From an uncultured Nitrososphaerales archaeon (GTDB lineage: Archaea; Thermoproteota; Nitrososphaeria; Nitrososphaerales; Nitrososphaeraceae), in NCBI GenBank assembly GCA_963709405.1, contig CAVPXM010000055.1, positions 320,001 to 384,000 on the forward strand: a DNA stretch of 64,000 nucleotides, read 5' to 3'. A program made the translations under genes and the position numbers. The notes beneath the pieces were generated by a model. That model searched no databases, was not told where the DNA came from, and saw only the letters and a list, made by a program, of their open reading frames with translations. Positions 8,578 to 36,634 of this stretch are shown here, one piece after another. Each line of letters starts with the position of its first letter. Within the stretch, counting starts at the first letter, position 1.

Positions 8578-8659
8578 AGTCCTTAGGTATTTTGCGAGCT
8601 TCAGATTTATGGATGATGGAGATTTTATTTTAATCTGTACCTGTATGAACTTTATCCGA

Positions 8660-16470: not shown

Positions 16471-16541
16471 TGATATTTAGTAATGATGGTAAGGGTGATA
16501 AGCATCATATAGTGCAAAGTTTCTGGATTCATTAGGTAATT
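16471..16541 (+). repeat. 71-bp imperfect direct repeat, left copy
   Basis: Aligns ungapped with 33324-33394, about 10 mismatches by manual count. Confidence 0.85.
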
Positions 16542-16758
16542 ATCCGTTATCATGATAATTCGTCATATTAAAGAGTAAAATGATACTGTAATTCCTTTAT
16601 TTACTACCGCTGTCTATTTCATTTTATTATCAGTACAGGAGATGTAGCATAGTGATTACTGTGGAAGCAACTTGCTTTTTTGACCGTTCCTTAGTAGGAA
16701 ATACAATTAGATGGTTAAAACAGGTGTGCCTTGCAGTTTTTCAAATAGCTATTTTGTT

Positions 16759-16935
16759 GTTATTTTGTCTGCAACGATAGAACAAATCAACAAAATTACA
16801 ATGTAATGAATTGTACCCTTTGTAAATAAATAGCAGAGTTGACCCGTGTTTAAAAATGGATCAAATTAATTCTGGAGAAAGGGTGAGAGGGAAATGACGA
16901 GTACCAGCAAGAAACAGAATGGGACAATTACAGGA
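16759..16935 (+). repeat. Promoter/RBS/start cassette, copy 1 (177 bp)
   Basis: Near-identical to 31158-31334 and in part to 21502-21620; contains ATTACA-A-TGTAAT, TTTAAAAA, GGGTGAGAGGG, ATG at 16894. Confidence 0.93.
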
Positions 16936-17076
16936 GAGACGACGGGCCAGTCATCAATGGAGTCGCTTGGCGGAGCCAAGAAACTTGACAAAAACGACCC
17001 CAAATTTCAAGTTGGTATGCTAGCAATGAAAACCGAAGCAGGCAGGACAACAAATCACGCCGCTTCATCAACGTAG
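16894..17076 (+). pseudogene. Mosaic 60-aa leader ORF, probable deletion remnant of a paralog of the 21607 gene
   Basis: Starts at the cassette ATG; cttgacaaaaacgacccc (LDKNDP) at 16984-17001 is identical to 21973-21990. Confidence 0.6.
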
Positions 17077-17090
17077 AAAGAGAAGACAGT

Positions 17091-18919
17091 ATGTTCTACA
17101 GTAACGGTAACTACGAAGCATTCATTCGTCCCCGCAAGCCGCAGGGCGTGGACGAGAAGTCTGCCTATCTCATCGGCGGTGGCATCGCCTCGCTCGCGGC
17201 GGCGGGCTTTTTGATCCGCGACGGGCAGATGGATGGCAAACGCATCACCATCTACGAGGCGAGCAATATCGCCGGCGGCTGCCTGGACGGCATCAAGGAC
17301 CCAAAGGAGGGCTACCTCTTCCGCGGCGAGCGCGAGATGGAGGACCACTACGAGTGCCTGTGGGATCTGATGCGCTCGATCCCGTCGCTCGATGTCGAGG
17401 ACGCCTCGGTCCTTGAAGACTTTTACCAGGTCAACAAGGACCACCCCAACTACTCCCTGTGCCGGACCACTCACAAGCGCGGGCAGCCCTTCCCGACCGA
17501 CGGCAAGATGCTCCTGACCCCCAAGGCGCAGGGCGAGCTGATGAAGCTCTTCTACACCCGCAGAAGAGAGCTATTCGACAGGCGGTTCGAGGAATTCGTG
17601 AGCGAGGAGTTCTTCACCAGCAACTTCTGGGTGTATTGGCTGTCGATGTTCGCTATCGGGCCCTGGCACGGCGCCCTGGAGATGAAGCTCTACATGAACC
17701 GCTTCGTCCAGCACTTCGGTGGGATGACGGATCTCAGCACTATCAAGTTCACTCGCCTCAACCAGTTCGACTCGCTGGTCCTCCCGCTAGTCAAGTGGCT
17801 CGAGCAGCAAGGCGTCACGATTGTGTACGACACGAAGGTCACCAACGTCGTGTTCGACATCACCCCGGAACGCAAGGTCGCTCGCCGGATCGAGTGGATT
17901 CAAGGCGGAAAGCGCGGAGGACGCGACGTCACTAAGAACGACCTCGTCCTCATTACCAACGGCTCTGCGGTCGAAAACACCTCGTGGGGGGACCACCACA
18001 CCCCGGCCAAGTGGATCAGGGACATCCAGGAGGGCAGCATCTGGGCGATGTGGCGCAACATCGCCGCCCAGGACGCCGCCTTCGGTCAGCCCGACAAGTT
18101 CTGTACCCACACCGACAAGAGCAGCTATGAGTCGGCATGCATCATCACCCTCGACGACAAGATTCCGCCCTACATCGAGCGGATCTGCCAGCGCGACCCG
18201 TACAGTTTCGACTCGAGCCCCATCACCGGTGGCTTGGTGACCGTGCGCGATTCCAATTGGATCCTGTCGTGGAACGTCGAGCGCAACCCGCACTTCAGGA
18301 ACGCGCCGAAGGACCAGCTGATGATCCACGCCTACGGCACGTACAGCCTCGACCGGCCCGGCAACTACGTCACGAAGGCGATGCGTGAGTGCACCGGCGA
18401 GGAGATCGCCCGGGAATGGCTCTACCACCTGGGGGTGCCGGACGATCAGATCAACCAGCTGGCGGCCAAGTCGGTGAACGTGCATCCGTGCATGATGCCC
18501 TACATCACGGCCTTCTTCTTGCCCCGGCGTGACGGCGACCGTCCCAAGGTGGTGCCCGAGGGAGCGGTCAACTTCGGGTTCCTGGGGCAGCTCGCCGAGA
18601 GCCACCCGCGGGACGTCATCTTCACCGTCGAATACTCGGTGCGGACGGCGATGGAGGCGGTCTACACCCTGCTGGACATCGAGCGGGGCGTGCCGGAGCC
18701 GTGGGGCTCGCAGTACGACATTCGTGCGCTGCTCAACTCGGCGATCGTGCTGCGGGATGGCGAGAAGCTAAAGCTGCCCCCCATGCTCGAGGCTACGTGT
18801 TGAACACCGAAATCGGCGAGCTGTTGAGGGACTACGGGTTAATCGGCGAACTCGGCGACAACGAGCTCACGGTCGCGATACACAAGAACCCTCCGCGGGT
18901 GACTCGCACGGTCCTTTAG
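17091..18919 (+). CDS. Oleate hydratase (myosin-cross-reactive antigen family); frameshift near 18790
   Basis: MFYSNGNYEAF, GGGIAS FAD motif, RGEREMEDH, FTVEYSVRTAMEAVY; family-type C-terminus (TEIGELLRDYGLI) in ORF ending 18919; GC-rich. Confidence 0.93.
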
Positions 18920-19193
18920 AGACTAGTGGAGAGACGGAATGGACAGGGAACTTCTATGTTTACAAGATCGGGCTGGTTCGGCTCTTAGCGGAGGACCGGG
19001 AGCGGGTTTACGCGCGTGCTCCAGTCCTCCTTTGCCTTCAGCGGACGGCGCACCTTGGAAAGAGTTCGAGTCCAATTGGTCGCCTCCCCAACGCCAAAGT
19101 TCCGTTTCTCTTCTGACGAAGTATCGCCCGCAATCGTTCGAGACTAGCCCGGATCGATGGGATGTGAAAAGAGCGGATATCGGAACGCTGGGC

Positions 19194-19280
19194 TATAGCG
19201 TTTTCGAGCGAAGTGGGTACCCGGTTCCCGTGACGAGATAGAGAACGCGTCAAAGCAAATGCATAGAGCCTCGGCTCTAG
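19194..19280 (+). repeat. Rhizobiales-type intergenic palindromic repeat element
   Basis: TATAGCGTTTTCGAGCGAAGTGGGTACCCGGTTCCCGT...AACGCGTCAAAGCAAATGCATAGAGC resembles Bradyrhizobium/Brucella-type repeats as recalled; ends in a TAGAGCC-TC-GGCTCTA hairpin. Confidence 0.65.
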
Positions 19281-19293
19281 GGAAAACGGAGGA

Positions 19294-19545
19294 ATGCGAT
19301 TGAACGAGAGGTTGACAAAGTGGGCGGCAGCCGCTGTGCTGTCGATTGTCGCCGCTGCGCCGGCGCTTGGCGGCTCCGTCACGCGTCAGGGTGACACAGC
19401 TGGCCTTGCGGTGGGAATGCCGCTCCCTCCAGGCTTCTATTTGCAGAATCAACTGACCGAGGATTACGTGGTCACAAGCCCGCATGACACGTCTGTCCTA
19501 GACGATGTCCCCGTCTTGGTTTGGTCGACCCCCTGGACGATTTAG
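19294..19545 (+). pseudogene. 5' fragment of an SphA/phenol-MetA-type outer-membrane protein
   Basis: GGAGGA SD, signal peptide, GDTAGLAVGMPLPPGFY motif; truncated where GC-rich DNA ends. Confidence 0.6.
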
Positions 19546-19686
19546 CTGAGCGAGCGCGCTTTGCACTAGCAAAATATGCATTAGATACTAAGCCCTCTTT
19601 GTCTACCCAGTCTCCTACTACATAGAATTGTCTGTCCCCCCTGACCCCCCCCACAGGTTTTAATATTAAATATTTTCGTATATATT

Positions 19687-20628
19687 ATGAAAGCCGGAAT
19701 ATTCTTACCGCAATCTGGAGACTCTGCGACAAGAGATAACGTTCTCTATATTGCAAATGAGGCTGAAAGGGAAGGCTTTAAATCTGTTTGGGTAATGGAG
19801 CGACTTTTGTGGCCAATGAAGCCCCAGTCACCATATCCTGGAACACCTGATGGTTCTCTTCCGGTTGAATACCAAAATGTACTTGACCCACTGGAGACGC
19901 TTACCTACTTGGCAGGCAATACCAATCAAATTTCTTTAGGAACTTGTATAATTGATATGCTGTTTCATAATCCATTAGTATTAGCAAGGCGATTTGCAAC
20001 ACTCGACATCCTGTCGCAGGGAAGGGCTATTGCAGGTCTAGGAATCGGATGGTCAAAAGATGAGTATGAAGCTTCAGGTATACCTTACAAATACAGAGGA
20101 GAAAGGGCAAATGAATATTTGCAAGTGCTAAAACGAATTTGGACCGATGAGGTAGTCGAATTTAAAGGTCACTTCTACTCGATACCAGCTTCAAAAATTG
20201 GGCCTAAGCCTGTGCAGAAGCCTCATCCCCCAATACTGCTAGGTGGATTCAGTCCAAAGACATTCTTACGAATAGTAAACTATGCGGATGGTTGGATATC
20301 TGTTGCCGGATTTGGACCATTGAAACAGCTTGAACAGGCTATAAACGGCTTAAGAGAAGGCGCAAGAAAAGCCGACAAAGACCCTTCAAAGATTCGTGTA
20401 GTTATGTTGACGTATCCGAATGTGCTAGACTCCTCCTCCTCAAATTCCTCCTCAGAGCCACAGAGATTGCCCATGACTGGTACCATTGACCAAATTGGAA
20501 CTGACATTGATCAAATCAAAGCGATGGGCGTAGAGCATATAATATTCGGCCATTTCTTATCTCCAACAGGCAAGGATATGAAGAAGATGATCGAGATAAC
20601 GAAACAGCTTGCTAAATTTGCTAAATAA
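19687..20628 (+). CDS. LLM-class (probably F420-dependent) oxidoreductase
   Basis: DPLETLTYLA, LARRFATLDILSQGR, GPKPVQKPHPPILLGG, YADGW; host-like AT content. Confidence 0.9.
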   Translation: MKAGIFLPQSGDSATRDNVLYIANEAEREGFKSVWVMERLLWPMKPQSPYPGTPDGSLPVEYQNVLDPLETLTYLAGNTNQISLGTCIIDMLFHNPLVLARRFATLDILSQGRAIAGLGIGWSKDEYEASGIPYKYRGERANEYLQVLKRIWTDEVVEFKGHFYSIPASKIGPKPVQKPHPPILLGGFSPKTFLRIVNYADGWISVAGFGPLKQLEQAINGLREGARKADKDPSKIRVVMLTYPNVLDSSSSNSSSEPQRLPMTGTIDQIGTDIDQIKAMGVEHIIFGHFLSPTGKDMKKMIEITKQLAKFAK

Positions 20629-20843
20629 AAATGGAGGCTACTATAGTAAATTTATGAGAGGCTCTCGTGATTGCTACGTCATCGGTTTTTGTGAAACTAT
20701 ATCTGTTTTTTGAGATCTCCATTTTCCAATGTTATCGTATTTATCGTATTGCATTTCTCACACTTGGCACAAGAGTCAGTTATATTCCAAAAAGCGTAGG
20801 GAGTAAGAGAATTTAATTCACCGTATTTCTTACACGAATTATA

Positions 20844-21074
20844 CTACTTCCAATGCAATTCTCTGAGTACAAAATTTCCACTCTCTTCTTTCTCACCCTT
20901 ATATATACCCAGCATATTATTCAAAAAAGATAGTTTCCCAGTAGAATTTATGCTATATGCTGATGCCCCTTGATAGTCTGTAAAATTTCTTACATCTATG
21001 GAACTATAGTTTGCCGTCTCACTCCCATCCTTGGTCGTTATTACTCCATCCTTGGTCGTGCTTAGATGGAGCAT
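20844..21074 (-). pseudogene. Fragment of a small secreted beta-protein
   Basis: TTKDGVITTKDGSETANY with a short tandem duplication; no intact N-terminus. Confidence 0.4.
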
Positions 21075-21501
21075 GCCATTTGGTTTTGTTATCTACCTGT
21101 CTCCAGTATTCAAGTATTCTGTGATCCATATTGTAGTAATAGTTGGTAGCTGCCGATAGGTCCTCGTGTGAATCTGAAACTATTCTTGTTTTTTAAGTTC
21201 TCCGTTCTTGAGGGCTATCGTAGTTGTCCGGTCTTATAGCATGTAGTTATTTCTAATATATGAGTGCTTAAGAATATTCGACCACATTATATAGATATGA
21301 AAACAATCGCATGGGCACGATTCTGTATATCTATACAGATTCAAAACATAACAATCCTCTCTGTAGGGTGACACCTATAGAGAACCTAGAATCTCTTCCC
21401 CAATACGATAAGGGAAAATATAAAGAAATGATACTTGATGCTACTACAACAGTTTACAATTTTTTTGGCTTTGATAGGACCATTTATAGCAATTTCAAGA
21501 G

Positions 21502-21620
21502 AACAAAATTACAATGTAATGAATTGTACCCTTTGTAAATAAATAGCAGAGTTGACCCGTGTTCAAAAATGAATCAAATTAATTCTGGAGAAAGGGTGAG
21601 AGGGAAATGACGAGTTCCAG
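21502..21620 (+). repeat. Promoter/RBS/start cassette, copy 2 (~119 bp)
   Basis: Near-identical to 16789-16907; its ATG (21607) is the start of the 204-aa gene. Confidence 0.93.
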
Positions 21621-22221
21621 TAACGTTACCAAAAAGTCAGGTAAGGGCAACAACCACGGCTTTGTCTCGGAGGTGAGCGCATACATGACCGTCAAGCCGG
21701 GTCACGAGGAGGAGGCGCGAGCGGCTTGTCGCCGCTTCGGCGACATGCTGCGTAACTCCGACCCGAAGGCTGTACAGAAGACTGGTCTGCGCGACGCGCG
21801 GTTGGTGGTCTTCGATGACGGTCGACGACTTATGTTCGCCTCTGGCTTCGAGACCGAATGGGACCCATACGTCGACGATGCCATTCTGATCGTTGGCATC
21901 GAACACTTTCTGGACTGGATGCAGCATACCGTAGAGGCAGAAGAACTTGTGGCATCGGTGAAGTCGCTTAACCTTGACAAAAACGACCCCGATTTGGATG
22001 AGAAAGTGAAGCCGGCCGGCGCCAAACTCAAGGCGGTCATCCAGTCGATTCAGACCCCAGCGACCGCCTACTTCAATGCACTGAGCGATCTTACGGTGCC
22101 ACAGATAAAGAAGGCCCAGCGCCTCCAACAGGCCTTCCAGCAGGTGCTCGACGACCCAGCCGCCCAGGATGCACTCAAACACCCGGCCCTGAAGCCGCTG
22201 CTAGAGCAGGCGGCCGACTGA
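21607..22221 (+). CDS. Hypothetical protein, first gene of DyP operon (possible dimeric alpha/beta barrel)
   Basis: 204 aa, GC-rich codons, VKPGHEE...ARLVVFDDGRRLMFASGFETEWDPYVDD. Confidence 0.75.
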   Translation: MTSSSNVTKKSGKGNNHGFVSEVSAYMTVKPGHEEEARAACRRFGDMLRNSDPKAVQKTGLRDARLVVFDDGRRLMFASGFETEWDPYVDDAILIVGIEHFLDWMQHTVEAEELVASVKSLNLDKNDPDLDEKVKPAGAKLKAVIQSIQTPATAYFNALSDLTVPQIKKAQRLQQAFQQVLDDPAAQDALKHPALKPLLEQAAD

Positions 22222-22252
22222 CCTGGGTACCCGTAGGTAGTAAGATAGAACC

Positions 22253-23433
22253 ATGTCAGACCATTTCTCTGGACCCCGGGCGATAGCGGGTCCGGCCGGC
22301 GACATCACTGATCTCTATGTGTTCCCCAGCCCTGAGCGCCCGGGCCATCTTGTGCTCGTGCTGGACGTGCAGCCAGACGCCCCCCATGACTCGTACTTTT
22401 CAGATGCGATCGTCTATCGCTTCCGGCTGCGGCCACTCACCATTTCGGGCGTAGGGGCAGCCGCAGCCTTTCCCTTCGCCGGCGAGGACAAAGAGATAGT
22501 CTTCAGCTGCCACTTCGAGGCTCCGCGGCAAGGCGGAGCTGGAGTGGCGCCTGTGCAGGAAGGTTGGTGTGAGACGCCGTCGGGTGAGACGACACGCTTC
22601 CGCGTTCACGAGGAGAGGGGCGCGAGCAGCGATGGCCTGCGCGTCTTTGCCGGCCTCAGAGCGGAACCATTCTTCTTCGATGTGCAGGCCCTCATAGAGT
22701 CGCAAAAGACTGGGCGGCTTGCCTTCAAGGAGGTCGGGACCAATGCCGCGATCGGCTTCAACGTTCTGAGCATCGTCGTCGAGGCTGACTGTCGGCCGTG
22801 GCTGCGCAGCGGCAGCGGGCCACTGCTAGCGGTGGTCGGCGAGACGGTGGTCGCCGGCAAGCTCCCGATCCGGATCGAGCGAATAGGCCGCCCAGAGATC
22901 AAGAACGTGATCTTGCAGTTGAAGCAGTTTGACCAGGTCAATCGCGACATGGAGCTGCGCGATCTCTACAACCTCGAAGACGCCTTCCACATGAGCAAGG
23001 ACTATGGTGGCGCCTACCGTGCCGGTTGAACGCCAACCTGGCCTTCAACGATCGCCTTGACGGTAAGACGGACTGGCAGCTCGGCCCGGATGGCGCCCAC
23101 CCCCTGACCGAGCTGCTACTCGCCGACTATCTAGTCGTCGACGTCTCACGGCCGTACGCCGCCGACAGCTTCTTTGAGATCGAGCAGGCGACTCTCGATG
23201 GGCACGCCCACCAAACGTGTGGTGGCCGGTCGCTGAACGACGACGTGATGGACAAGCTGCTCACACTGCTCGTTAACGGCGGCAAAGGACCGCGCGTGAG
23301 TGACGGCGTGGACCGGCCGGCAACCCCGGTCTCGGACGTCTTCCCCTACCTAGGCGCCGCCAACTCATCAGCCGCGGGCCAAGCAAGGACTGGGCCTTGC
23401 AATCGGCCAAGCAAGCAAGTAAGGAGACTATGA
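22253..23433 (+). CDS. DUF4331-like protein (frameshift near 23020)
   Basis: MSDHFSGP..DITDLYVF, FAGLRAEPFFFD, ERIGRP, GGRSLNDDVMD, FPYLG across two ORFs. Confidence 0.75.
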
Positions 23434-24759
23434 CCGCTAAGTCGACCGTCGCGCTGGAGCTTGACGACATCCAGGCCGGCGCCCTAGAGCCGCGGCCGGT
23501 TCCTTACGCGGGTATATACCAGATCCTGCGTCTTGACGACCGGCATGCAGGGCGTGAGCTGCTGCGGCGGCTAATCCCGTATCTCGACTCGGTTGCCTCC
23601 TTCGATCCCAAAACGCCGGTGTCGCTCGCCGTGGCACTCAGCTTCCAGGGTCTCAAAGCCCTCGGGGTACCGGAGGAGTCACTTGCCAGCTTCCCACCCG
23701 AGTTCCAGCAGGGAATGGCCGCACGAGCGGCCGAGCTTGGGGACGTGGGGGAGAACGCTCCCGAGCACTGGGAGAAACCGCTGGGTTCGCAGGACGGCCA
23801 TCTCGTGGTGGTCGGGCTCGCGCCCGACACTGCCCGCCTGGAGGCCGCTTTCCGCTACGCCCGCGACGCCCTACGCGATCTGTCCGGCGTCGTGCCCATC
23901 TGGCAACAGGACGTACACGCCGCGGCTGACCTGCGCAACATGTTCGGTTTCGCGGACGGCATCGCCCATCCGGCCGTCGAGGGTACTGGCATTCCCGGCA
24001 CCAATCCGTACGAAGTGCCGCTCAAGGCGGGCGAGTTCGTCCTGGGGTACGAGGATGAGACCCACAACCTCCCCCCCGTACCGCAGCCCGAGGTGCTGGG
24101 CCGCAACGGCACCTACGCGGTCTTCCGCAAGCTGCACACGCGCGTAGCCGCCTTCCGCCAGTACCTGCGCCAGCACGCCAAGGACCGCGCCGAGGAGGAG
24201 TGGCTGGCCGCCAAGATCGTCGGGCGCTGGCCGCAGCGGCGCGCCGCTGGCACTGACTCCGGACAAGGACGATCCCGAACTTGGGGCCGACCCGAAACGC
24301 AACAACGCCTTCATGTTCGGCGACGACCCGCATGGCCTCAAGTCCCCGATCGGCGCGCATGTCCGACGGATGAACCCCCGCGACTCGGTCGTCATTGGCG
24401 AAGTGCGCTTGCACCGCATGATCAGGCGCGGCACCAACTATGGCCCGCCGCTGCCCCCGGACGTCCTGGAGGACGACGGCGCCGACCGCGGCCTCATATT
24501 CGCCTTTGTCGGGGCGCACCTTGACCGGCAGTTCGAGTTCATCCAGAGGGAGTGGGTAAACGACGGCAAGTTCATCGGCGCACCGGCCGAAAAGGACCCG
24601 CTGGTGGGCAGTAACGATGGCCGTGAATTCACCATCCCGAAGCAGCCAATCCGCCGCCACCTCAAGGGACTGCCCGCTTTCGTCGTCAATCGCGGCGGCG
24701 AATACTGCTTCATGCCCGGCCTGCGGGCGCTGCGCTGGCTCGCCGATCTCGACACTTGA
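23430..24759 (+). CDS. Dyp-type peroxidase (frameshift near 24235)
   Basis: LDDIQ, FGFADGIAHP (GxxDG), NGTYAVFRKL, GAHVRRMNPR, IRRGTNYG, QFEFIQ, GGEYCFMP; ATGA overlap with the upstream gene. Confidence 0.9.
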
Positions 24760-25044
24760 GCCAGGGCGCAGGAGGAATGGCACCTGATATGACAGCCGAG
24801 CTATGCGTCTGGGAATCTTAATTTTAGGAATCTTAGAAATGTTGGGATAACAGTGTAGTTCTTTCTCACGAGCAATATAGCGGATCCCGCTTCGGCTTCG
24901 GTCGCCAAGAAGGGTAAAAGCGTTTCTAGTTTTATTTTTGTGGTTATTCCTGCAAGCCTTGCAACTTTATATTCTCACGAGAAGGTAAGAGGTAGGGATA
25001 CTAGGCGACTTGATAGAACCAGCAGAAGCCGAGGATGTCTTTGG

Positions 25045-25590
25045 AACCTTAAGCCAGTAAACCTGAAAATTCATAGCTCGATCTAGAGATTATGAAATGT
25101 TTTTGATATCGAATCCCAGAATGCTAGTTGGGATACATTGCAAAAGAAACTTTACTATCCAAAAAACTGTGGCAAGACTAGAAAAGATGATGATAGAAAA
25201 CAATATTTTGCAATTTACTATTTTTACAGACCCATCTTCTACGAATTAACAGGGTTTATCAAATTCGGAGTGTATTAAGTTGATGCACTTTATCATCAAA
25301 ATATAGTTCAGAGAATATAGAATGAAATGCAAGAATATATACTGCATCCAGTTGATGATGTAGAATAATACCAAATCAACTGTTTAATTGTCTATCCAAA
25401 GGAACTTGTTATTGCATCTTTCTGTTGTGCAAACATATCTACAGTCAACTTAATATTGAGAAGACTAGAATCATATGAAGGGGTTAACAAAAGTCGAATC
25501 AATAACAGTAACTAGCGAAACCAGAATTTATCGGGACTGGTTAAGGAGTGATATTGACAGAAGGTTAACATCTAGTCAAAAGCATTTATG
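25045..25590 (+). pseudogene. Decayed paralog of the Lrp/AsnC regulator at 27330
   Basis: Nucleotide similarity to 27770-28250 (gagattatgaaatgttt, tagaaaagatga, tatgaagg, gactggttaagga) with stops and indels. Confidence 0.7.
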
Positions 25591-25904
25591 ATCGTTAATA
25601 TCATTAATATCCTGAGCACCGCTGTCTTTTCGAAGAGTTAGTTTACTTGTTACCTGACTCAGTAGGCTGACTAGCCATGCGAAAAGCCATTATTGCCTAC
25701 ATTAGCAGGCAACATTAACAGGGTTTATCGAACTGACTGCAGAGCTCAAAACTACCACTTGGCTTAAGATATATACTATATTGTCTTTTTTGGACTACTG
25801 TTTTTTAACTCAACGCATTAAAAATCGGACAGATACTACAAAAAGTATACCAAAATTACTGGTTGACTTGCACCAAGCCTAAATCAATACTGGAGTATTG
25901 ATAT

Positions 25905-26174
25905 ATGGACTATTCGTATATGGCATTACTTAACCATAGCAGGTATTCACTACCAAAGTCACTCAATTGGCTGAGGGCAGTACAAATAGGCTTTGGAGCT
26001 TTAACTATTGTTACATCTATATTCGCTCTAGCGTTTCCAGGCTCCACCTACATTTCGGTAGTTTGGGTACTTGCTCTAGTACTGTTCTTCGTTGGAATAG
26101 AAGAAATCATCGTCGGAATTTTTTCACGTAGAGAGCCAGTCAGAGGAAGATATGCAGAAACTCCTGGCCTCTGA
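25905..26174 (+). pseudogene. N-terminal fragment of DUF308/HdeD-like membrane protein
   Basis: WLRAVQIGFG...FPG...VGIEEII, two TMs, then abrupt end. Confidence 0.55.
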
Positions 26175-26338
26175 TCTTCAATATTCCGTAATTGGTGCAA
26201 TCTTTGCTAATGAATCACAAAGAAAATAAACATGAACCAAGCAAACAACCATCCGAGGATTATCATGCTGGAGACAATTGTCATTTACACAATGAGGTGA
26301 TATATTGCAAATAAAACCAGCACAAGGAGTGTGTAAAA

Positions 26339-26869
26339 GTGAAAGTGCTACTTTTAGATTTGACTTCTGAAACTATGAAAAGTTTACGACAGGAAGCCAA
26401 GCAAAAAGATATCAGCACTAATACCTTGTTAAACCAAATAGTAAAAGAACATTTAAGATGGCATGCTAACGCATCTAATGCCGGTTTTATCGCAGTCAAT
26501 AGACTCTTTATTACAAGCTTGATAAGTCATTTATCAGAGCAAGATATTATTTCTATAACAGAACATGTAGCCAAGAACACAACCAAAGACACAATATTGC
26601 TTTTAGAAAATGAATATACAATGAAATCAGCGCTAGACTTTATAGAAAACTGGATAAAAATATCTGGTTATAAATATAAACATCATGAAATTAATGATGG
26701 CCAAAATAGGCATATGTATGTAATACAACATGACATGGGAATTAAATGGTCTATTTATTTGGCTAATATATACCAATTCTTATTTGATGAGGTAAAGGAA
26801 GACAATAAAAGAAGAGCAAAATTTGAAAAAACCGAAAATACATTAGCATTTACAGTTGATGTCGACTAA
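26339..26869 (+). CDS. Conserved hypothetical protein with RHH-like N-terminus
   Basis: LRQEAKQKDISTNTLLNQIV; IQHDMGIKWS motif. Confidence 0.7.
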   Translation: MKVLLLDLTSETMKSLRQEAKQKDISTNTLLNQIVKEHLRWHANASNAGFIAVNRLFITSLISHLSEQDIISITEHVAKNTTKDTILLLENEYTMKSALDFIENWIKISGYKYKHHEINDGQNRHMYVIQHDMGIKWSIYLANIYQFLFDEVKEDNKRRAKFEKTENTLAFTVDVD

Positions 26870-27268
26870 TACGTTAGAGTAGTGTAAGTTTCGACACTAG
26901 TCCATCATCGTTTTGTGTTGTAGCCATAATTATTAGCCTAAATTTAGTATTTAGAGTCTAGTCATTTAGGAAAGTCGGGGCAACAATCTTCAAATGCATA
27001 GACAAAAAGAATATTGTAGATATAGGCCAACACTGATTCATTCTGGAGGATCCGTGCATGATTATATTCACATTAGAATTGTTCTTATCGAATTACTTCT
27101 GCACAAGGGACACCTAGAACACATTTTATTATTAATCAGATGTAGACCTGGAGCAAGATAACGAGAAAGCACACCCGAAGTACGCTCACATATTTAAAAA
27201 TGCTTTTGTTTGTTATGGATATTTTCGTAGCTATAGATATTAAAACAAATAAAAAAATCATGTAGCGG

Positions 27269-27303
27269 GGATAATTTTCGCAAAATTATCCGAAAAGTAT
27301 ATG
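27269..27303 (+). promoter_or_regulatory. Operator palindrome next to BRE/TATA of the Lrp gene
   Basis: GGATAATTTT-CGC-AAAATTATCC (27269-27291) followed by GAAAAGTATATG. Confidence 0.6.
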
Positions 27304-27329
27304 ACGACCGCAAATATTACTAATATTTA

Positions 27330-28302
27330 TTGCAACAAGCGATAGTAGATGATATTGATTTACAAATTATAAGGTTACTTGTTAGTGACTGTAGAACAGG
27401 TTACACTGATATTGCTTCTGCAGTTGGAATATCTACAAATGCTGCAAAAGTAAGGACTAACAAAATGATTTCAAATGGCGTGATACAAGGTTTTAGAGTA
27501 CTTGTAAATCCAGCAACATTTGGATATGAGAAATTATTATTTTTAATAGCTAATAATATTGATAAAACAATTAAAGAACAAGACCTATTCAAAAAGATAC
27601 GTCTTTTAGGGGAGGTTTTTGCATATGCCAGGCACTTTGAAAGCGCTAGTATTTTTGTACTATTTGCTAAGGATATATCGCAGGACAAAATAGATATATT
27701 GGGTGATTTACTAAAGCCAGCAACAGTAGAGTCTATCTTTGGCAACTATAGACCACCAACCATGACTGTTAATGATTCTGATTTGGAGATTATGAAATGT
27801 TTATTGTCAGATCCTAGAATGTCGGGTAAAGATCTAGCCCAGCAAACTTCACTTTCACATAAGACGGTAGCAAGAAGATTAGAAAAGATGAGAGAAAACA
27901 ATGTTTTACAATTCTTTACAATTAAAGCAAACCTGGCTTCTCTTAGATTAGTAGGTTACATTGAATTTCCAGCATTAATTTATGTCAGGGAGCCAAGTTA
28001 CCAAAGCATAGTTGAAAGAATATACCAGGAATTACAAGAATATTTATTCTTGCTATCTAGTACCTCGATATTGGGATCAAAAGAGATTCATTTTTGCAGT
28101 ATTCTTTGCTTCGAACATTTCCATCGTCAACTTGGTATTAGGAAGGTTGCGATCCTATGAAGGAATTACCAAAGTTGAATCATTTATAACAACTAATGTG
28201 TCATATCATCTAGACTGGTTAAGGATCGAGATGGACAAAAGGTTAGCAGCTGGTAAGAAGTATTTATTATCATCAACATATGCTGCAGCTAAAGATTCGT
28301 GA
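27330..28302 (+). CDS. Lrp/AsnC-family regulator with two HTH modules (frameshift near 28060)
   Basis: DDIDLQII...YTDIASAVGIS and DLEIMKCLLSDPRMSGKDLAQ..VARRLEKM; C-terminus in ORF 28012-28302. Confidence 0.8.
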
Positions 28303-29269
28303 TTATTCGTTCCAATTCAATAGCACATCAAGGCCTATGTCATTTATCGTATATCCTTGATTTTGCCCAATTTAAGAAATTAGTCAATTAAATAAAACAA
28401 ATATTTCTTTTAGTAGGTCAGGCGACGATAAAGGCATTACTCGCATTATATCATCAAGTATAGATCTTCTAGTACATAATAACAAAACTATTGCTACTGT
28501 CTTCATTGCTACTTTGTGAACTAGAACAAGCATTGAATAGGATATGACAAACAAAAAAAGTTGGCACAGTATGCGAGAAGACGGATAGAAAACTATGATA
28601 AACTATTAAGAGAAGAAGAAGTTGATTCACAAAATAACTGCCAAAGTGTTTTGAGAATCTACTACTCTCCAATTCTTCTTTCCAACAACCTTATGTATTT
28701 GCTCTGTGCTATAATTACTTTAAACAATACGTCACCTGACTGTTTAATCCATCGATCAGTTTCTATTTGGTTAAGAGCCACATTAACAATGTTTTCGTTA
28801 CTTGATCTTTCCTTTATTTGGCGTGACCAAGCTTCCAACTCTGGAAACTGTGTCATCAAAAATTCTACCTTATGTCTTTTCTTATCTAATTCCTCGTCTG
28901 AACGCAGCCAGCGTGTCGAGGCTAAGATAACGAGAGAATGATCCTACAGCAGTAGTTGCGGTTGAGACATGGAGTCAACTGCACTTTGTTCTATAATAAT
29001 AGAATGATGTGGCACATTAATCTTCACCAATGAAGTAAATAGAGCTACATGGCTGATGGTATTTCGACGGGATTTATTTGAACGAAAGCTGATAGTATAG
29101 ATTTTCCGTAGGAAGAGATCTATGATATACGACTAGAACTATCAAGGCAAAGCATGCAAATTGATAAGTGGACGTTGTAAACCAGGTCGGAACTACCTGA
29201 CCTTCCTGCATATAAGAAGCCATATCTGAAGGTACGTCATTGTGGAGTTTGATGAAATTCCACAGGATC

Positions 29270-30710
29270 TCATTTCTGTTCAGATTCAAAGGTTTGGAGA
29301 CTGCCGCCGGTGGCGGCCAAACGTTTGAAGCCATCAAATGCAGCATATTTGTAGGCCATAGTATAGGTAGGTGTAGCAACTGTCAGGTTGTTAAACACGT
29401 CAATCGCGTCTGAATTGTAAAGCGTGGCCTGTCCAAGGGCGATGAGTTCTGACGCAATGTCGCCGAGGATATGGATTCCGAGTAAGCGGCGGTCTTGACG
29501 GCGGAATACCAGTTTCAGGATGCCATCCGTATCCCCAGAGATGAGTCCGCGGGGGATTTCTCCAAAACTGCAACGCCCGACTTCGTAATCGATCCCTTGC
29601 TCTTTGGCTTTATCTTCAGTTAATCCGACTCCCGCCAATTCCGGAACTGAATAAACTGCTGAGACAGATAATGGGTCTAACTTCACCTTGAATCCAAGGC
29701 CCAAGGCATGACAAGCCGCTACCCGGCCTTGCTCCGTCGAAACTGAGGCTAGCGAAGGACCAATTACATCGCCAGCAGCGTAAATCCCCTCAATACTAGT
29801 TTGAAAATGGTTGTCCACTTCAACCACTCCTCGAGGATTCAATTTTACCCCAGCTGCGTCAAAACATAGGCCTTCAGTGTCAACCAAGCGGCCGGTCGCA
29901 AACAGCGCCATGTCCGGTCCCAGCACTTCGCCGGTTTTCAAAGTGACCTGTAGCTCGCCATTGATCCGGCCGGCGGTGTGCACTCCTGTACCGAGCACAA
30001 TCCTCATCCCCTGTTTCTCAAAGGCCCTACGCAACAAATCCGACAGCTCACTATCCATGGTGCCTAACAGATGTTCTCCAGAGTGGACCACAGTCACGGG
30101 AATCCCATAGGCATTAAAAATTGAAGCAAACTCACATCCTATCGCCCCACCGCCAACGACCAGGGCGCTCTTAGGAACACGCTTAATCTTTGGCAGCTCT
30201 TCTGAATCGAAAATGTCGGGATCATCAAACGGGATGTTTGCTGGATGAAATGGGCGCGACCCTGTCGCAATCAGAATTTTTTCTGCCGTAAAGACGCGTT
30301 CCGTTTCTGAAACCTCGCGGGGGGTGACTATAACGGTGCGATTTGGGCCCAAACGCGCTGACCCATAGACGACATCTACTCCTAACTTGTCTACAAAAAA
30401 AGAGTGAGTAAAGTTCTGCATCGCAGAAGAAACTTCTTCTGTTCTTGCGCGCGAGCGCTTTACTGCCATAACTATATCAGGTTGCTCAGTAATTCCATAA
30501 AGGGCCCGATAACGAAAACCAGTAAGATGTAAGGTCTGCCTCACGGAGCGTCTTGGTTGGCCCTCCGCCCGTTGTGACCACAAGGCCGCCAAGGACTTCG
30601 CGCTCGATAACCAATGTGCGTCGCCCGGCGAATGCGGCAAACTCAGCCGCACCTTGTCCCGCTGGGCCACCACCAATGATAATTAGGTCGTAGTGCTGGA
30701 TGCCTGTCAT
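29270..30710 (-). CDS. Soluble pyridine-nucleotide transhydrogenase-like flavoprotein (frameshift near 30550)
   Basis: YDLIIIGGGPAG, ATGSRP, VGGGAIGCEFA, IYAAGDVIG; no redox CxxxxC; intermediate GC. Confidence 0.8.
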
Positions 30711-31157
30711 GGTTTCGTCTCTGTCACCAACTGCTTCTTGCACCATTTAGCATAAGGAATAGTCGCGAGATTAGTTATAATAAGATAAATCACAATCACA
30801 TCCGACACCACCTTGTACAGGTACTTTGATAGCCGCTCTAAGGATATGGTTCAGTCAGAGCCTCACTCTTGATTGAGTATGTTCACTTTGAACCTAGCCA
30901 ACATGCAGAATATGCTAGTGCTAGAAGATTTTCATATCGTCAGGGCCATAGAATGTATCGGATTATTTTATAGTTGTGATATTAGCTTGACCTTGACCTG
31001 TACTACTTTTTATTATATACTTCTTTGATGATGTAGACTACCACGTATAGAACTACAGTCTTTGGGGGAATAGTCATTAACCTGTATGACATAAGCGATC
31101 AAGTTAGGGAATATGGACTAGAGGCTATAGAAGGTATCAAGCGACAAAGTTAGCCTA

Positions 31158-31334
31158 GTTATTCTCTCTGCAGCGATAGAACAAATCAACAAAATTACAA
31201 TGTAATGAATTGTACCCTTTGTAAATAAATAGCAGAGTTGACGTGTGTTTAAAAATGAATCAAATTAATTCTAAAGAAAGAGTGAGAGGGAAATGACGAG
31301 TACCAGCAAGAAACAGAATGGGACAATTACAGGA
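31158..31334 (+). repeat. Promoter/RBS/start cassette, copy 3 (177 bp)
   Basis: Near-identical to 16759-16935; ATG at 31293. Confidence 0.93.
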
Positions 31335-31346
31335 CAGAAACTATGA
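31293..31346 (+). CDS. 17-aa leader peptide MTSTSKKQNGTITGQKL overlapping the oleate hydratase start
   Basis: Cassette ATG; TGA 31344-31346 overlaps ATG 31343 (ATGA). Confidence 0.5.
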   Translation: MTSTSKKQNGTITGQKL

Positions 31347-33058
31347 GAAACTATTACTGTGTCAACACCCTGCCGCCTGCGGGTATCGACAAGAAGAACG
31401 CCCACATCGTGGGTGGCGGGATCGCCGGCCTGGCCGTGGCGGTCTTCCTGGTCGACGATGCACACATGCCCGGGGACAGGATCACCGTCTACGAGCAGCT
31501 CCCCGTCACCGGTGGAGCGTTAGACGGCGCCGGTGACCATCAAACCGGCTACACCGCCCGGGGAGATCGTGAGCAACATGAATCGATGGACTGCCTGTGG
31601 TATTTGTGCGCCAAGATTCCCTCGGTAGCGAGCCCCGGCATGACGATCCTCGACGAGACCTACGAGTCGAACGTGCAAGAGCCCATCAACGCCAAGTTCA
31701 GATTGATGGCAAACCGGGGTCAGCAGTATTCCGCGGGCGAAGAGCTTATGTCGGATGAGGACCGACGCAGGATGATCAAGTTGTGGCTCACGCCAGAGGA
31801 GAAGCTGGAGAACCAAACCCTGGCCGACTGGTTTACCCCTGAGTTCTTCAGCAAATCTGCATTTTGGCACTACTGGTCTAGCATGTACGCGTTTTGGCCG
31901 GATCACGCGCTGATCGAGGGCCGGCGCTACCTGCTGCGCTACTCCGAGATCAACCCTGCGAACCTACACGGGATCCTGCACTACAAATACAATCAGTACG
32001 ACTCGGTGGCCAAGCCGATACACGTCTGGCTGGAGCGCCATGGCGTGCGATTCCGCACCGGGACGACCGTCACCGACATCGAGACCGCAGACAAGGACGG
32101 AGAGACCCTCGCCACGGGTCTGAAGTTCCGCGACGCCGACGGCGAGCACCATCTCAGACTCGCCCGTGATGATCTGGTGTTCTTCACCAACGGTTCCTTG
32201 GTGCAGAACTCCACTCACGGCGACACCAAGACCGTGACCAAGTTTGACCGCAACACCGCCGACCGGGGCTGCTTCACAGTGTGGGAGAAAATGGCGGCGC
32301 GCAATCCGAAGTTCGGCAAACCCGACGTGTTCCTCTCCAACGTGGATAGAAGCGGGTGGATTTCGTACTACGTGACGATCAAGGGCGACGCCACGTTCTT
32401 CGACTACATGGAGGCCAAGACCGGCAACGCACCCAACACTGGTGGTCTGACCGCGATCGTCGACTCCTCGTGGAGGCTGAACTTCGCCCTTTTCAGCAAG
32501 ACCTTCCTCGATCAACCCGACGCCGTGCAAACGCTTCAGGGCTACGCCCAGATCATGACCAAACCCGGATCCTACATCAAAAAGCTGATGCCGGAATGCA
32601 CCGGCGCGGAGATCTTCGCTGAGTTGCTCTACCACTGCGGGCTAAAGGATGATCAGATCAAAAGCATCGTGTCGCACAGCATCGTGCATACCTTTGCCAT
32701 GCCGTATATCGTCGCCGAGTTCATGCCCCGGCGGGTCAGCGACCGTCCCAAGGTGATTCCGGACGGGTGCGTGAACCTGGCGTTCCTCGGCCAGTTCGCC
32801 GAAGTGCCCGGCGAGGTTGTGTTCACCACCGAATGCTCGGTGCGCAGCGCGATGATGGCGGTGTACGGTCTGACCGGCCTGAAGAAACCAATGATCCCGT
32901 TGCCCGAGCCCTACTTCGACGTCCGGGTGTTGGCCTTAAATCTCAAGATCATGGGCGGCAAGGAAAAGCTCACCCCTGAAGACCTGAGGGCCCTGCCGTT
33001 TACCGATGAAATCGTCTCGTTGATCAGCCAGGTCTTGAATTCCGCCGAGTTGCCCTAG
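31343..33058 (+). CDS. Oleate hydratase (MCRA family), divergent second copy
   Basis: GGGIAG, RGDREQ, KYNQYDS, NLAFLGQF, VFTTECSVRSAMMAVY; GC-rich. Confidence 0.9.
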   Translation: MRNYYCVNTLPPAGIDKKNAHIVGGGIAGLAVAVFLVDDAHMPGDRITVYEQLPVTGGALDGAGDHQTGYTARGDREQHESMDCLWYLCAKIPSVASPGMTILDETYESNVQEPINAKFRLMANRGQQYSAGEELMSDEDRRRMIKLWLTPEEKLENQTLADWFTPEFFSKSAFWHYWSSMYAFWPDHALIEGRRYLLRYSEINPANLHGILHYKYNQYDSVAKPIHVWLERHGVRFRTGTTVTDIETADKDGETLATGLKFRDADGEHHLRLARDDLVFFTNGSLVQNSTHGDTKTVTKFDRNTADRGCFTVWEKMAARNPKFGKPDVFLSNVDRSGWISYYVTIKGDATFFDYMEAKTGNAPNTGGLTAIVDSSWRLNFALFSKTFLDQPDAVQTLQGYAQIMTKPGSYIKKLMPECTGAEIFAELLYHCGLKDDQIKSIVSHSIVHTFAMPYIVAEFMPRRVSDRPKVIPDGCVNLAFLGQFAEVPGEVVFTTECSVRSAMMAVYGLTGLKKPMIPLPEPYFDVRVLALNLKIMGGKEKLTPEDLRALPFTDEIVSLISQVLNSAELP

Positions 33059-33323: not shown

Positions 33324-33394
33324 TAATATTTGGTAATGTTGGTAAGGATCATAAGCATGGTGTAGTGCAAGGTTTCTGGATTCATTAGGCAATT
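33324..33394 (+). repeat. 71-bp imperfect direct repeat, right copy
   Basis: Aligns with 16471-16541. Confidence 0.85.
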
Positions 33395-33926
33395 CTCGAT
33401 ATATCTCAATCATACTATTGGTAGAGATATCGCCAAACTATTTCAAAAGCCAGATGTACTCTGGCTAGTTTAAGCCAGCTGTGCTTCTGGATAGACCGAT
33501 AGTATTATTTAGCAAAGATAATGCTTTGCTATGAGTAGTGTTGAATAGCATTATTCCATAAAAAAACCCAGTGATTATCGATAACTCTTCCTAGGTCGGA
33601 AGATATCCAAGTGATTTTTTGGCCATCGTTAGTCCCAAACGTTCCGTTTCCTCTCGCAAGGAGCAGTTTATCAGACAAGTGAGCAACTAAACAGATTAGA
33701 GAGAAGTTGCAGATATATGATGAACTGGAAGATTTACAGGAAAGAAGTGGAGGCGTTAACGCAGTAATCCTGATAGCATTGGGTACGTTGATTTGGTTAA
33801 TTTCATAGTTTTGATTTTTGGACTGTACAAGATAGCGAGAGGTACTCATGATTCCTTTATTTGGAAGAATATAGGCAAATACGTACCTAATATAAGAACT
33901 CAATAATAGTTTGGCAACCGGACCAT

Positions 33927-35612: not shown

Positions 35613-36634
35613 AGCTTGTTGCATAAATCATTTTATTCCTTCGTACATTATCTATACCTCTCTACATCATGGTAGCAAACATGTTATACAATGACGCTTT
35701 TAGGATCAATTCCTTGGCCATATTCTGAAACTTTCTTGCAGTTACATACTCGCCAAACGTTCTTTTGATAGACGAGAATACCGTTTCTGCCATCCACCTT
35801 TGTCCATAGCTCACGCTATGTTTCCATCTTTTGAGATTTGTTTGTTGTCTCATTACAGACCTATTCCTTGCTTGACAGTTGCCTGTCTTGACCTTGGAAT
35901 TACTTCTTGTCTTTATACCAGGTTTAATATGGTTCTTGGATAGATATCTAAAATTCTTATTACTGTCATACATACCATCTGCTAACGCACCCTTTACATT
36001 GTTATTTGCAGAAGCATTATCAATCAACTTCTTTAGCATCTTGCCATCGTGTACTTCTTCACTAGTAACCTCCAAAGAAATAATCTTCTTATTCTTGATG
36101 TTTACTGCTACATGTATTTTCAGATAACCTCTTCTTACGTGCCATTTATGTCGTATCCATTCACCTCTATTAGCAACTTTGATTCCTGTACTATCTAATG
36201 CTATAATGATGTCCTCATCATCATTACCTACTTCATGCCGTTCGCTGATTCTGATATCCTGGTTATTAATACGTCTGTTAATTGTACTGTAGTTTGGAAT
36301 AGATGGTATCTTCTTATTACCAGCATGAGCTATGACTATGCCTTCTGCTTGCCGGTATGGCAGATGAAAATATACCCTCATGTAACCTAGTAATTGGATA
36401 AACGAATCAGGATAGTGGTACTGTGCACCCCTCTTTCCATCATTCATTAAGTCCAACTCACTATACCAACTATCTATGACATCAAAATCTAGAATAACTT
36501 CACCTCGCCTAACTAGCGATTTGTTATAAAAAGACCAGTTAATCATGTCCAACAATAATCTCATTACATGTTAGCTAAATCTCAATTGGTCAACAAACTC
36601 ATAGCGATATGATAATGATTTGTGCAACAAAGCA
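35613..36634 (-). mobile_element. IS5-family (IS903-like) insertion sequence
   Basis: TIRs GCTTGTTGCATAAATCATT / AATGATTTGTGCAACAAAGC; 8-bp TSD GATTCTTT at 35605-35612 and 36635-36642. Confidence 0.9.
35662..36564 (-). CDS. IS5-family DDE transposase
   Basis: NWSFYNKSLVRRG, DSTGIK, KIHVAV, ADGMYD, YGQRWMAETVFSSIK. Confidence 0.93.
   Translation of the reverse strand: MRLLLDMINWSFYNKSLVRRGEVILDFDVIDSWYSELDLMNDGKRGAQYHYPDSFIQLLGYMRVYFHLPYRQAEGIVIAHAGNKKIPSIPNYSTINRRINNQDIRISERHEVGNDDEDIIIALDSTGIKVANRGEWIRHKWHVRRGYLKIHVAVNIKNKKIISLEVTSEEVHDGKMLKKLIDNASANNNVKGALADGMYDSNKNFRYLSKNHIKPGIKTRSNSKVKTGNCQARNRSVMRQQTNLKRWKHSVSYGQRWMAETVFSSIKRTFGEYVTARKFQNMAKELILKASLYNMFATMM

Follow-up and report, generated by a model that had tools for sequence, protein, structure and literature searches.

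The DNA analysed here is a 64,000-nucleotide (nt) stretch, hereafter the window, of contig CAVPXM010000055.1 in the assembly of an uncultured Nitrososphaerales archaeon (GCA_963709405.1). It carries two G+C-rich genes, ohy1 and ohy2, whose products (Ohy1 and Ohy2) belong to the MCRA family of oleate hydratases, and each gene stands behind a copy of the same short, AT-rich sequence module. The enzymes extend a known family to a new host and were acquired very recently. Ohy1 came as a piece of about 2.5 kb from a bacterial lipid-handling cluster, and the common upstream module is the most interesting part of the locus. A literature search found no link between oleate or fatty acid hydratases and the Nitrososphaeria or Thaumarchaeota, and archaea make up 2.2% of the family's InterPro entries according to the part of PMC11669549 that was available.

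Both open reading frames (ORFs) are present where a first-pass annotation, made from the letters alone, had placed them (Table 1), and its description of two GC-rich, mutually dissimilar MCRA genes holds. Each protein matches the Pfam family MCRA (PF06100; cut-off 23 bits) over its full length, Ohy1 at positions 2-495 of the 495-position profile (E 1.3e-191, 638.3 bits) and Ohy2 at positions 1-495 (E 4.5e-158, 527.6 bits), and the two are 37% identical to each other (204/554, E 3e-113). Both also exceed the cut-off of 567 bits of the NCBIfam equivalog 'oleate hydratase' (NF010584), Ohy1 with 776.9 bits and Ohy2 barely, with 572.8. The closest PDB structures are the L. acidophilus enzyme (4ia5; E 3e-185 for Ohy1 and 5e-123 for Ohy2) and the S. 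aureus enzyme (7kav). An NAD_binding_8 match and the FAD-binding motif GxGxxG/S/A occur in both proteins (LIGGGIASLAAAG in Ohy1, IVGGGIAGLAVAV in Ohy2). When Ohy2 is aligned to the E. meningoseptica hydratase (EmOhy, 4uir), the Glu of RGDREQ coincides with E122 and the Tyr of RRYLLRY with Y241, and RGEREM and KLYMNRF of Ohy1 align with the same two motifs. E122 and Y241 are the catalytic Glu and Tyr of EmOhy in the portion of PMC4552966 consulted, and Met replaces the catalytic Glu in about 30% of family members in that of PMC8403116. Ohy1 and Ohy2 are like the MCRA oleate hydratases LaOhy (4ia5), S. aureus OhyA (7kav) and E. meningoseptica OhyA (4uir) over their full length, in the FAD motif and in the catalytic Glu and Tyr, and the 'PHF' motif of Ohy1, which holds a His aligned with EmOhy H442, is shared with these enzymes. 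They differ from the bacterial enzymes in the Glu loop, which reads RGEREM in Ohy1 and RGDREQ in Ohy2 instead of RGGREM, and in their host, an archaeon without fatty-acid membranes. The tail of S. aureus OhyA binds the membrane, as described in the accessible text of PMC10847778, whereas the tail of Ohy1 is out of frame in this assembly.

Against a background GC content of 34-43% (2-kb windows), the window shows four GC-rich blocks, all within 16.9-33.1 kb. In 300-nt windows the GC content is 0.56-0.66 in Ohy1 and 0.56-0.63 in Ohy2, against 0.28-0.40 in the adjoining DNA, and the GC content of third codon positions (GC3) is 0.88 and 0.81, respectively, against 0.25-0.40 in 17 host-like ORFs (12 flanking genes, four ORFs within the region and an IS5 transposase). 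Among the 120 matches listed for ThiC (927-2255), at 84-99% identity, four bear an organism name, in each case 'Nitrososphaeraceae archaeon' (84-89% identical). The remaining flanking genes are housekeeping genes, encoding an ArsA-type ATPase, MoaA, TatC, MsrA and ELP3. ORF family scans and Rfam and tRNA scans of the 64 kb found no amo gene, rRNA or tRNA, and the Rfam scan gave no match of any kind; because the window is without an amo gene, the label of ammonia oxidiser is one that we infer for the host from its family placement alone.

Of 173 candidate stretches from a scan for Ohy1 in one genome per species, 156 were relatives; 78 loci, numbered from L001, were retained. Seventeen loci encode proteins 76-96% identical to Ohy1. 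Close bacterial loci number 13, of which 12 come from one long-read soil series of metagenome-assembled genomes (MAGs); the titles of the bacterial MAGs are Alphaproteobacteria, proteobacterium, Pseudomonadota, Verrucomicrobiae, Acidobacteriota, Rokubacteria and Gemmatimonadaceae, and the contigs reach 4.3 Mb and have a native-looking GC content of 51-71% per kb. In nucleotide identity to Ohy1, L005 stands at 95.4%, nine other bacterial loci at 92.0-93.8%, the two from Gemmatimonadaceae at 90-91%, L010 at 82% and those from Actinomycetes and Chloroflexi at about 81%. The Ohy1 protein is 86-92% identical to bacterial enzymes in lipid-transport clusters. The transfer was very recent, with about 5% nucleotide divergence and a composition that is not adapted to the host. 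The bacterial type that the first-pass annotation had ascribed to both genes is borne out by this closeness of Ohy1 to genes of bacterial MAGs and by the named relatives of Ohy2, which are bacterial.

The likeness to bacteria does not stop at the gene. By blastn, island A (Table 1) is 84-92% identical to L002, L004, L005 and other loci over 17000-19171 and 19273-19543; it begins at 17000 (L002) or 17026 (L004), about 90 nt upstream of Ohy1, runs downstream to 19105-19171 and resumes over 19273-19543, and the translation of its last part, 19294-19545, matches the N-termini of the proteins encoded at L002 11931-12803 and L004 12133-13011. Because the bacterial likeness extends past the gene on both sides, we read island A as one fragment of a donor cluster. 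The donor order is ribBA, ohy, the gene of a signal-peptide protein and then a Mla-type lipid ABC transporter. In L004 the cluster starts with a sensor kinase, a LuxR-type response regulator, a third MCRA paralogue, an unassigned gene and RibBA, and continues with the Ohy1 type, a 292-residue protein, MlaE, an ABC ATPase, MlaD and an auxiliary lipoprotein. Soil-bacterial clusters with several paralogues (L004, L005, L007, L024 and L025) hold two to three deeply diverged MCRA paralogues per genome, and a cluster of the donor type supplied Ohy1 and its flanks. In these bacterial clusters the paralogues are adjacent and accompanied by a two-component system, RibBA and a Mla-type lipid transporter, and none was transferred intact; unlike them, each archaeal hydratase gene stands alone behind its AT-rich module.

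Among the bacteria themselves, one hydratase gene is 88-96% nucleotide-identical over L001-L012 and L014, which are titled as at least five bacterial phyla. The likeness of L008, L009, L012 and L014 to L004 and L005 ends within about 15 nt of the gene ends, a pattern that suggests gene-sized exchange of the hydratase among these bacteria. L004 1-5740 and L005 838-7095, titled Acidobacteriota and Rokubacteria, are 94-95% nucleotide-identical over more than 5.5 kb of flank that includes the sensor kinase and response regulator, and this identity reflects either a large mobile region in common or unreliable titles. L012 has an extra partial copy (1031-1243) of the first 210 nt or so of the hydratase gene, 2.7 kb upstream of the full gene. 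Hydratase genes are frequent on plasmids: the Ohy1 region matches 70 plasmid records and Ohy2 matches 220. Carriage by plasmids was rejected as an explanation, all matches being distant (60-80% nucleotide or less than 60% amino-acid identity); those of the Ohy1 region at 60-80% nucleotide identity include records of the haloarchaea Natribaculum and Haloferax.

Two further loci place Ohy1 in archaeal DNA. L013 and L015, 96.1% and 95.5% identical to Ohy1 at the nucleotide level, hold the GC-rich gene inside DNA of 29-39% GC, as in the window, and flank it with a DUF2150 gene ('conserved in archaea') and an Fe-ADH_2 gene, which we take to be of the glycerol-1-phosphate dehydrogenase type. The copies of the window, L013 and L015 form one clade (support 0.995) within the bacterial group, and among 16 close copies these three alone have a 27-nt deletion in the C-terminal tail. 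L013 and L015 share 8.8 kb of syntenic DNA at 95% identity. No synteny between the window and either of them was found outside 17090-18949, and the 158-residue ORFs near Ohy1 in the window and in L013 and L015 are unrelated. The ratio of nonsynonymous to synonymous substitution rates (dN/dS) among the three archaeal copies is 0.08-0.21, and since the transfer purifying selection has maintained Ohy1 in three archaeal genomes. A window-to-L005 dN/dS of 0.80 was set aside because L005 is raised against other bacterial copies too (0.36-0.51) and may carry errors. The common deletion and the low dN/dS in archaeal MAGs speak against a chimera and against neutral decay.

L013 and L015 also have a second hydratase, of the third clade (L013 3449-5038 and L015 about 11771-13274, both on the minus strand), which is convergent with Ohy1 and shares 87-90% nucleotide identity with its bacterial counterparts in L004, L005 and L007. 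Upstream of the hydratase pair, L015 carries a tyrosine-recombinase gene with a zinc ribbon (918-1946) and a family-A DNA polymerase gene (4529-6283), 4-8 kb from Ohy1, and the two may mark an integrated element.

The best matches of Ohy2 are two metagenome proteins, one 92% identical over the full length and one 96% identical over 66% of it, followed by proteins of Ktedonobacterales (63%) and Streptomyces (59%). A tree of 65 selected hydratase rows, built by a quick method under LG+G4, has three deep clades, and because long branches meet at its deep joins only shallow groupings are used here. Ohy1 falls in a multi-phylum clade of 17 rows (Shimodaira-Hasegawa-like approximate likelihood-ratio support, SH-aLRT, 100). 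Ohy2 and its two metagenome relatives sit on a long branch (100) that is sister (92) to a Streptomyces/Chloroflexi clade of 59-63% identity. Ohy2 derives from a different, unsampled donor of this other clade. The phylogeny of both proteins that had been proposed as a check supports separate acquisitions, since the deep clade of Ohy2 is not that of Ohy1 and its named bacterial relatives do not exceed 63% identity.

The module occurs three times in the 64 kb, each copy oriented as the genes that it precedes, and in none of the 78 compared loci. Copies 1 and 3 are 94.5% identical over 181 nt, and the 122-nt core at 16789-16910 is 96.7% identical to 21502-21623. Copy 1 contains TACAAT-N7-ATTGTA (16797-16815), TTTAAAAA (16849-16856) and GGTGA (16882-16886), the last resembling a Shine-Dalgarno sequence 7 nt before an ATG at 16894. 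The perfect inverted repeat TACAAT-N7-ATTGTA occurs three times in the window, where chance would give 0.36, and the core further has A/T runs that are candidate TATA boxes. In copy 2 the module ATG directly starts the gene of a 204-residue protein; in the other two copies it opens a leader ORF. Leader ORF 1 is chimeric, joining the module's opening codons to a short fragment like the middle of the 204-residue gene and to donor DNA; for that fragment the comparison of 16981-17006 with 21970-21995 scores 35, against 17.1 +/- 2.2 for shuffled sequences, of which 0 of 500 reach 35. The 204-residue protein starts with MTSSSNVTKKSGKG and one of its homologues with MTSRSKVTKKSGKG, both similar to the leader peptides (MTSTSKKQNG...). 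Because the leader peptides and 16981-17006 match the 204-residue gene, we read the module as the upstream region and first codons of a gene of this type, and the two hydratase fragments occupy the place that the bodies of further copies of it would have.

Each of the three foreign units, Ohy1, Ohy2 and the block of the 204-residue, DUF4331 and DyP genes, lies directly behind a module copy, and the module may act as their common promoter. It would contribute both transcription signals, namely an archaeal promoter and an operator-like inverted repeat, and translation signals, namely a ribosome-binding site and a start codon: the 204-residue gene would use the module ATG itself, Ohy2 would be coupled through its 17-codon leader and Ohy1 would follow its 60-codon leader. 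Bacterial genes that are otherwise silent in an archaeon would thereby be expressed, and jointly. The two-domain Lrp/AsnC-type protein encoded between the islands is a candidate regulator of the module. A promoter and terminator scan used a bacterial-type consensus only and is uninformative here, because the host is archaeal. The first-pass annotation had proposed a co-regulated island of the hydratases, the DyP peroxidase, the flavoprotein and the LLM enzyme. One module does precede Ohy1, Ohy2 and the block that ends in DyP, in keeping with joint regulation of these, but the LLM gene has a native composition (GC3 0.38) and the SthA-like gene lies on the opposite strand, both without a module, and these two fall outside such an island.

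Table 1. Features of the variable region and its borders (window coordinates).
Feature	Position	Strand	Remarks
Repeat X copy 1	16473..16544	+	72 nt; direct repeat, 86% identical to copy 2
Module copy 1	16759..16939	+	AT-rich, 181 nt; directly upstream of Ohy1
Leader ORF 1	16894..17076	+	60 codons from module ATG; ends 14 nt before Ohy1 ATG
Block A	about 17000-19545		GC-rich
Island A	17000..19545	+	Contiguous bacterial DNA: about 90 nt of donor upstream, ohy1, spacer, 5' end of next gene
Ohy1, oleate hydratase	17091..18803	+	570 residues as read; Pfam, NCBIfam, PDB
Truncated bacterial signal-peptide protein	19294..19545	+	First 83 codons of about 290 residues; cut at island edge
F420-dependent LLM-class oxidoreductase	19687..20628	+	TIGR03619 224.8 bits, cut-off 166.9; GC3 0.38
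Module copy 2, core only	21502..21623	+	ATG 21607 is the start of the 204-residue gene
204-residue protein	21607..22221	+	No Pfam family
Block B	about 21620-24850		GC up to 0.70
DUF4331 protein	22253..23433	+	Two frames, break near 23020-23030; PF14224 split over two ORFs
DyP-type peroxidase	23397..24759	+	Two frames, break near 24235
Decayed copy, 3' half of Lrp/AsnC gene	24989..25600	+	tblastx to 27687-28280; directly after DyP gene
Two-domain Lrp/AsnC-type regulator	27330..28160	+	Pfam HTH_AsnC-type / HTH_24, two stretches; GC3 0.25, native-like
Block C	29270-30750		GC about 0.50
SthA-like flavoprotein	29270..30746	-	GC about 50%; two frames, break around 30490-30560
Module copy 3	31158..31338	+	Directly upstream of Ohy2
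Leader ORF 2	31293..31346	+	17 codons; TGA stop overlaps Ohy2 ATG (ATGA)
Block D	31340-33125		GC-rich
Ohy2, oleate-hydratase family	31343..33058	+	571 residues, frame intact
Repeat X copy 2	33326..33397	+	Starts about 270 nt downstream of Ohy2
IS5-family transposase	35662..36564	-	NF033579 262.7 bits, cut-off 140; Pfam DDE_Tnp_1; near right side of region

The other genes that had been named, for an F420-type LLM enzyme, a DyP peroxidase and a SthA-like flavoprotein of the soluble pyridine nucleotide transhydrogenase type, are present as well. The LLM gene is native-like and lies outside the foreign set. A structure model of the 204-residue protein (predicted local distance difference test, pLDDT, 90) combines an ABM-like N-terminal domain of ferredoxin fold with a helical part, and a fold search gave only weak ABM-like matches to the N-terminal half (E 2e-3, template-modelling score to the target about 0.6); at E <= 1e-3 it has 295 homologous representatives, and hypothetical proteins of Actinomycetota make up its nearest Atlas clusters. 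No literature on DUF4331 was found. Both halves of the DyP fold are matched, residues 18-279 of the first ORF by residues 5-267 of PDB 8re3/8re2 (E 2e-65) and residues 2-146 of the second by residues 292-441 (E 4e-44), and each piece matches TIGR01413 below its cut-off. The best PDB match of the SthA-like protein is 9n4y (E 1e-62). Its larger piece reaches 350 bits with NF003585, below the cut-off of 465, its N-terminal FAD motif lies in a separate frame (ORF 30486-30746), and the gene is divergent from Ohy2, about 410 nt from the Ohy2 module. In the 78 compared loci tblastn found no relatives of the LLM, 204-residue, DUF4331 or DyP proteins and one weak flavoprotein match. The DNA between the islands is sparsely coding: 34 of 37 scanned ORFs are without a Pfam match (E <= 0.01); the N-terminal piece of SthA is one of the three that have one.

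The repeat X pair brackets the entire region, and its likeness reaches over about 16450-16580 and 33303-33433. As to the marks of a genomic island, the flanking direct repeat is present, and the window scans found no tRNA and, among 79 ORFs, no integrase. Repeat X and the decayed Lrp/AsnC copy are signs of segmental duplication. Elsewhere the window holds an ORF with an rve integrase core (58400-58984) and a second DDE transposase (59144-60112), and a small ORF (34492-34851) with a signal-like N-terminus and a repetitive Ser/Pro-rich tail, with 21-nt tandem repeats at 34765-34815. An ORF of 158 residues on the minus strand (15790-16266) has a weak match, below threshold, to DUF6788 (E 0.003), a family that is often found with archaeal mobile elements.

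Our best explanation overall, to which we give a probability of about 0.6 as a whole, is that the window, from the genome of a soil member of the Nitrososphaeraceae, holds a variable region of 17 kb (about 16.4-33.4 kb), that high-GC bacterial DNA entered this region in at least three separate pieces, and that these separate, recent imports are expressed behind the common module, the hydratases acting on fatty acids. Several observations weigh against it. The host is placed by a single marker protein, ThiC. L013 and L015 bear the record title 'Methanosarcinaceae archaeon', a label that is unconfirmed, and they are without the module, which implies that Ohy1 can be kept without it; the promoter, operator and Shine-Dalgarno roles of the module are themselves predictions from the sequence. 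The hydratase engineering database had few archaeal or fungal genes, none of them successfully expressed by 2021 as far as the consulted part of PMC8403116 goes. Ohy1 lacks one base near 18797, which throws its last 40 or so codons out of frame; this tail, which is in frame in L013 and L015, is encoded here in another frame up to a stop at 18917-18919. The DUF4331, DyP and SthA-like genes have one frame break each, and if all these breaks are real, part of the set is decaying. Four residues that bind the carboxylate in EmOhy (Q265, T436, N438 and H442) were also compared. Ohy2 has A, F and T at T436, N438 and H442 in a HMMER alignment to 4uir, and so lacks their equivalents there, and Ohy1 (SWNVERNPHF) by motif comparison retains the His alone of these three. 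These residues vary in characterised enzymes too (SFTIHRQPHF in 4ia5), and because they differ, strongly in Ohy2, the substrates cannot be assumed.

An assembly artefact, in which bacterial reads were misjoined to an archaeal contig, would fit the sharp GC steps, the bacterial MAG contigs that hold the nearest relatives of Ohy1 and the presence of indel errors in the assembly. It would, however, need at least eight false AT/GC junctions in 17 kb. The ATG of Ohy2 overlaps the stop of a leader ORF that begins in AT-rich DNA, island A ends inside a bacterial gene, and the copies are 4-5% diverged rather than identical. The contaminant or chimeric origin against which the first-pass annotation had warned is hardly credible when two other MAGs hold the same Ohy1, with a deletion that only archaeal copies have, in an AT-rich archaeal context. 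It is unlikely, though to a much lesser degree, that the bacterial DNA merely landed and is decaying, with hydratases that are unexpressed or useless and a module that is the debris of duplications of the 5' end of the 204-residue gene. Such dead cargo would account for the frame breaks in the Ohy1 tail, DUF4331, DyP and SthA, for the truncated donor genes and the decayed regulator copy, for the low coding density between the islands and for the IS5 transposase nearby. Yet dN/dS among the archaeal copies of Ohy1 is low, Ohy2 is intact, and the module copies are 94-97% identical, with every ATG used by or coupled to a foreign gene. The frame breaks, moreover, fit sequencing error. Isolated 1-nt indels occur at differing places in the 1707-nt core of L013, L015 and two of the 13 close bacterial copies, and native genes of the window are likewise split, namely ELP3 (62390-62857 / 62874-63998), a molybdopterin oxidoreductase (50748-51320 / 51419-52276) and an ABC permease (49465-49992 / 49802-50266). 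Because indels are scattered through the relatives and native genes are split alike, we take the breaks to be assembly indels rather than decay.

The two hydratases could also have come from the tandem pair of one donor and have been split later by insertions. Chloroflexi and Streptomyces have a gene of the Ohy2 type immediately upstream of one of the Ohy1 type, and because of this adjacency the two types are an established bacterial pair; Ktedonobacterales/Chloroflexia pairs are found at L024 5062-6714 / 6949-8634 and L025 8114-9766 / 10001-11683, and one Streptomyces contig has both types. Such pairs are only 75-78% (Ohy1-type) and 59-63% (Ohy2-type) identical to the proteins of the window, whereas other bacteria reach 86-92% for Ohy1. 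Of the loci at that level, only L001 and L006 have an Ohy2-type neighbour, which is 50% identical to Ohy2; L004, L005 and L007 carry a gene of the third clade instead, and the others have no such neighbour in the DNA compared. Because the loci with the closest Ohy1 have no close Ohy2-type neighbour, separate acquisition is the better reading, and with the genes of the window 12.5 kb apart, each behind its own module, a single acquisition seems very improbable. A different purpose for active enzymes, which might make hydroxy fatty-acid signals or antagonists or hydrate isoprenoid lipids or other alkenes, would agree with the missing carboxylate-anchoring residues in the alignment of Ohy2 and with a host in which membrane lipids built from fatty acids are not expected. 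Engineered hydratases can also act on simple alkenes, as reported in the part of PMC6471033 at hand. Against this, both proteins score as oleate-hydratase equivalogs, and Ohy1 is close to ordinary bacterial enzymes encoded in lipid-transport clusters. We know of no natural member of the family that acts on isoprenoids, and a purpose of this kind is improbable.

If the hydratases are active as the preferred explanation has it, they would hydrate free unsaturated fatty acids of plant and bacterial origin at their cis double bonds, and the two paralogues probably differ in substrate or position, by analogy with bacterial paralogue sets. Detoxification of exogenous unsaturated fatty acids is the role that we favour, at about even odds, because bacterial OhyA inactivates antimicrobial unsaturated fatty acids (PMC7948970, in the text available) and because the donor cluster is lipid-related.

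The arrangement of the region invites comparison with known gene-capture systems. Integrons, including those described in archaea (PMC9668308), likewise hold several foreign genes in one orientation, bounded by a repeat, and recruit bacterial genes into an archaeon; the available main text of that paper makes no mention of Nitrososphaer- or Thaumarchaeota. The repeat of the window differs in that it lies upstream and includes an ATG, where an integron has attC downstream, and no Phage_integrase match occurs in the 79 window ORFs scanned (15 + 27 + 37; outside 12-38.5 kb, those of 150 residues or more). Nor is the repeat attC-like, since an attC-type hairpin was not found in single-stranded folds of the module core (z 0.36 on the plus and -0.06 on the minus strand against shuffled sequences) or of the downstream flanks (z -1.59 for Ohy1 and 0.27 for Ohy2), and an integron was rejected. 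Outward promoters of insertion sequences supply promoters to acquired genes, and here too a short promoter-like sequence is repeated before unrelated acquired genes. Unlike these, the module includes the first codons of a gene and would act through leader ORFs and translational coupling. An insertion sequence or a miniature inverted-repeat transposable element was rejected for the module, which adjoins no transposase and in which no terminal inverted repeats were seen on reading.

As a tentative and rather speculative extension, the module may be a reusable landing and expression pad with which soil Nitrososphaeraceae have repeatedly recruited bacterial genes into one regulon that responds to a signal, for example membrane-active lipids, in which case the oleate hydratase gene would belong to a sweep that passed very recently, at 92-96% nucleotide identity, through several bacterial phyla and into archaea in soil. 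Much of the ammonia oxidation in soil is carried out by soil Nitrososphaeraceae, unsaturated free fatty acids are membrane-active, and reports name free unsaturated fatty acids as apparent nitrification inhibitors. Active hydratases would give some soil ammonia oxidisers a bacterial defence against these lipids that is ready for use, which, if true, would bear on the efficacy of plant-derived nitrification inhibitors. The locus is an unusually clean and very recent transfer from a bacterium to an archaeon, with donor flanks still attached and with purifying selection in the new host, and in the module it offers a visible candidate answer to the question of how bacterial genes gain archaeal expression signals.

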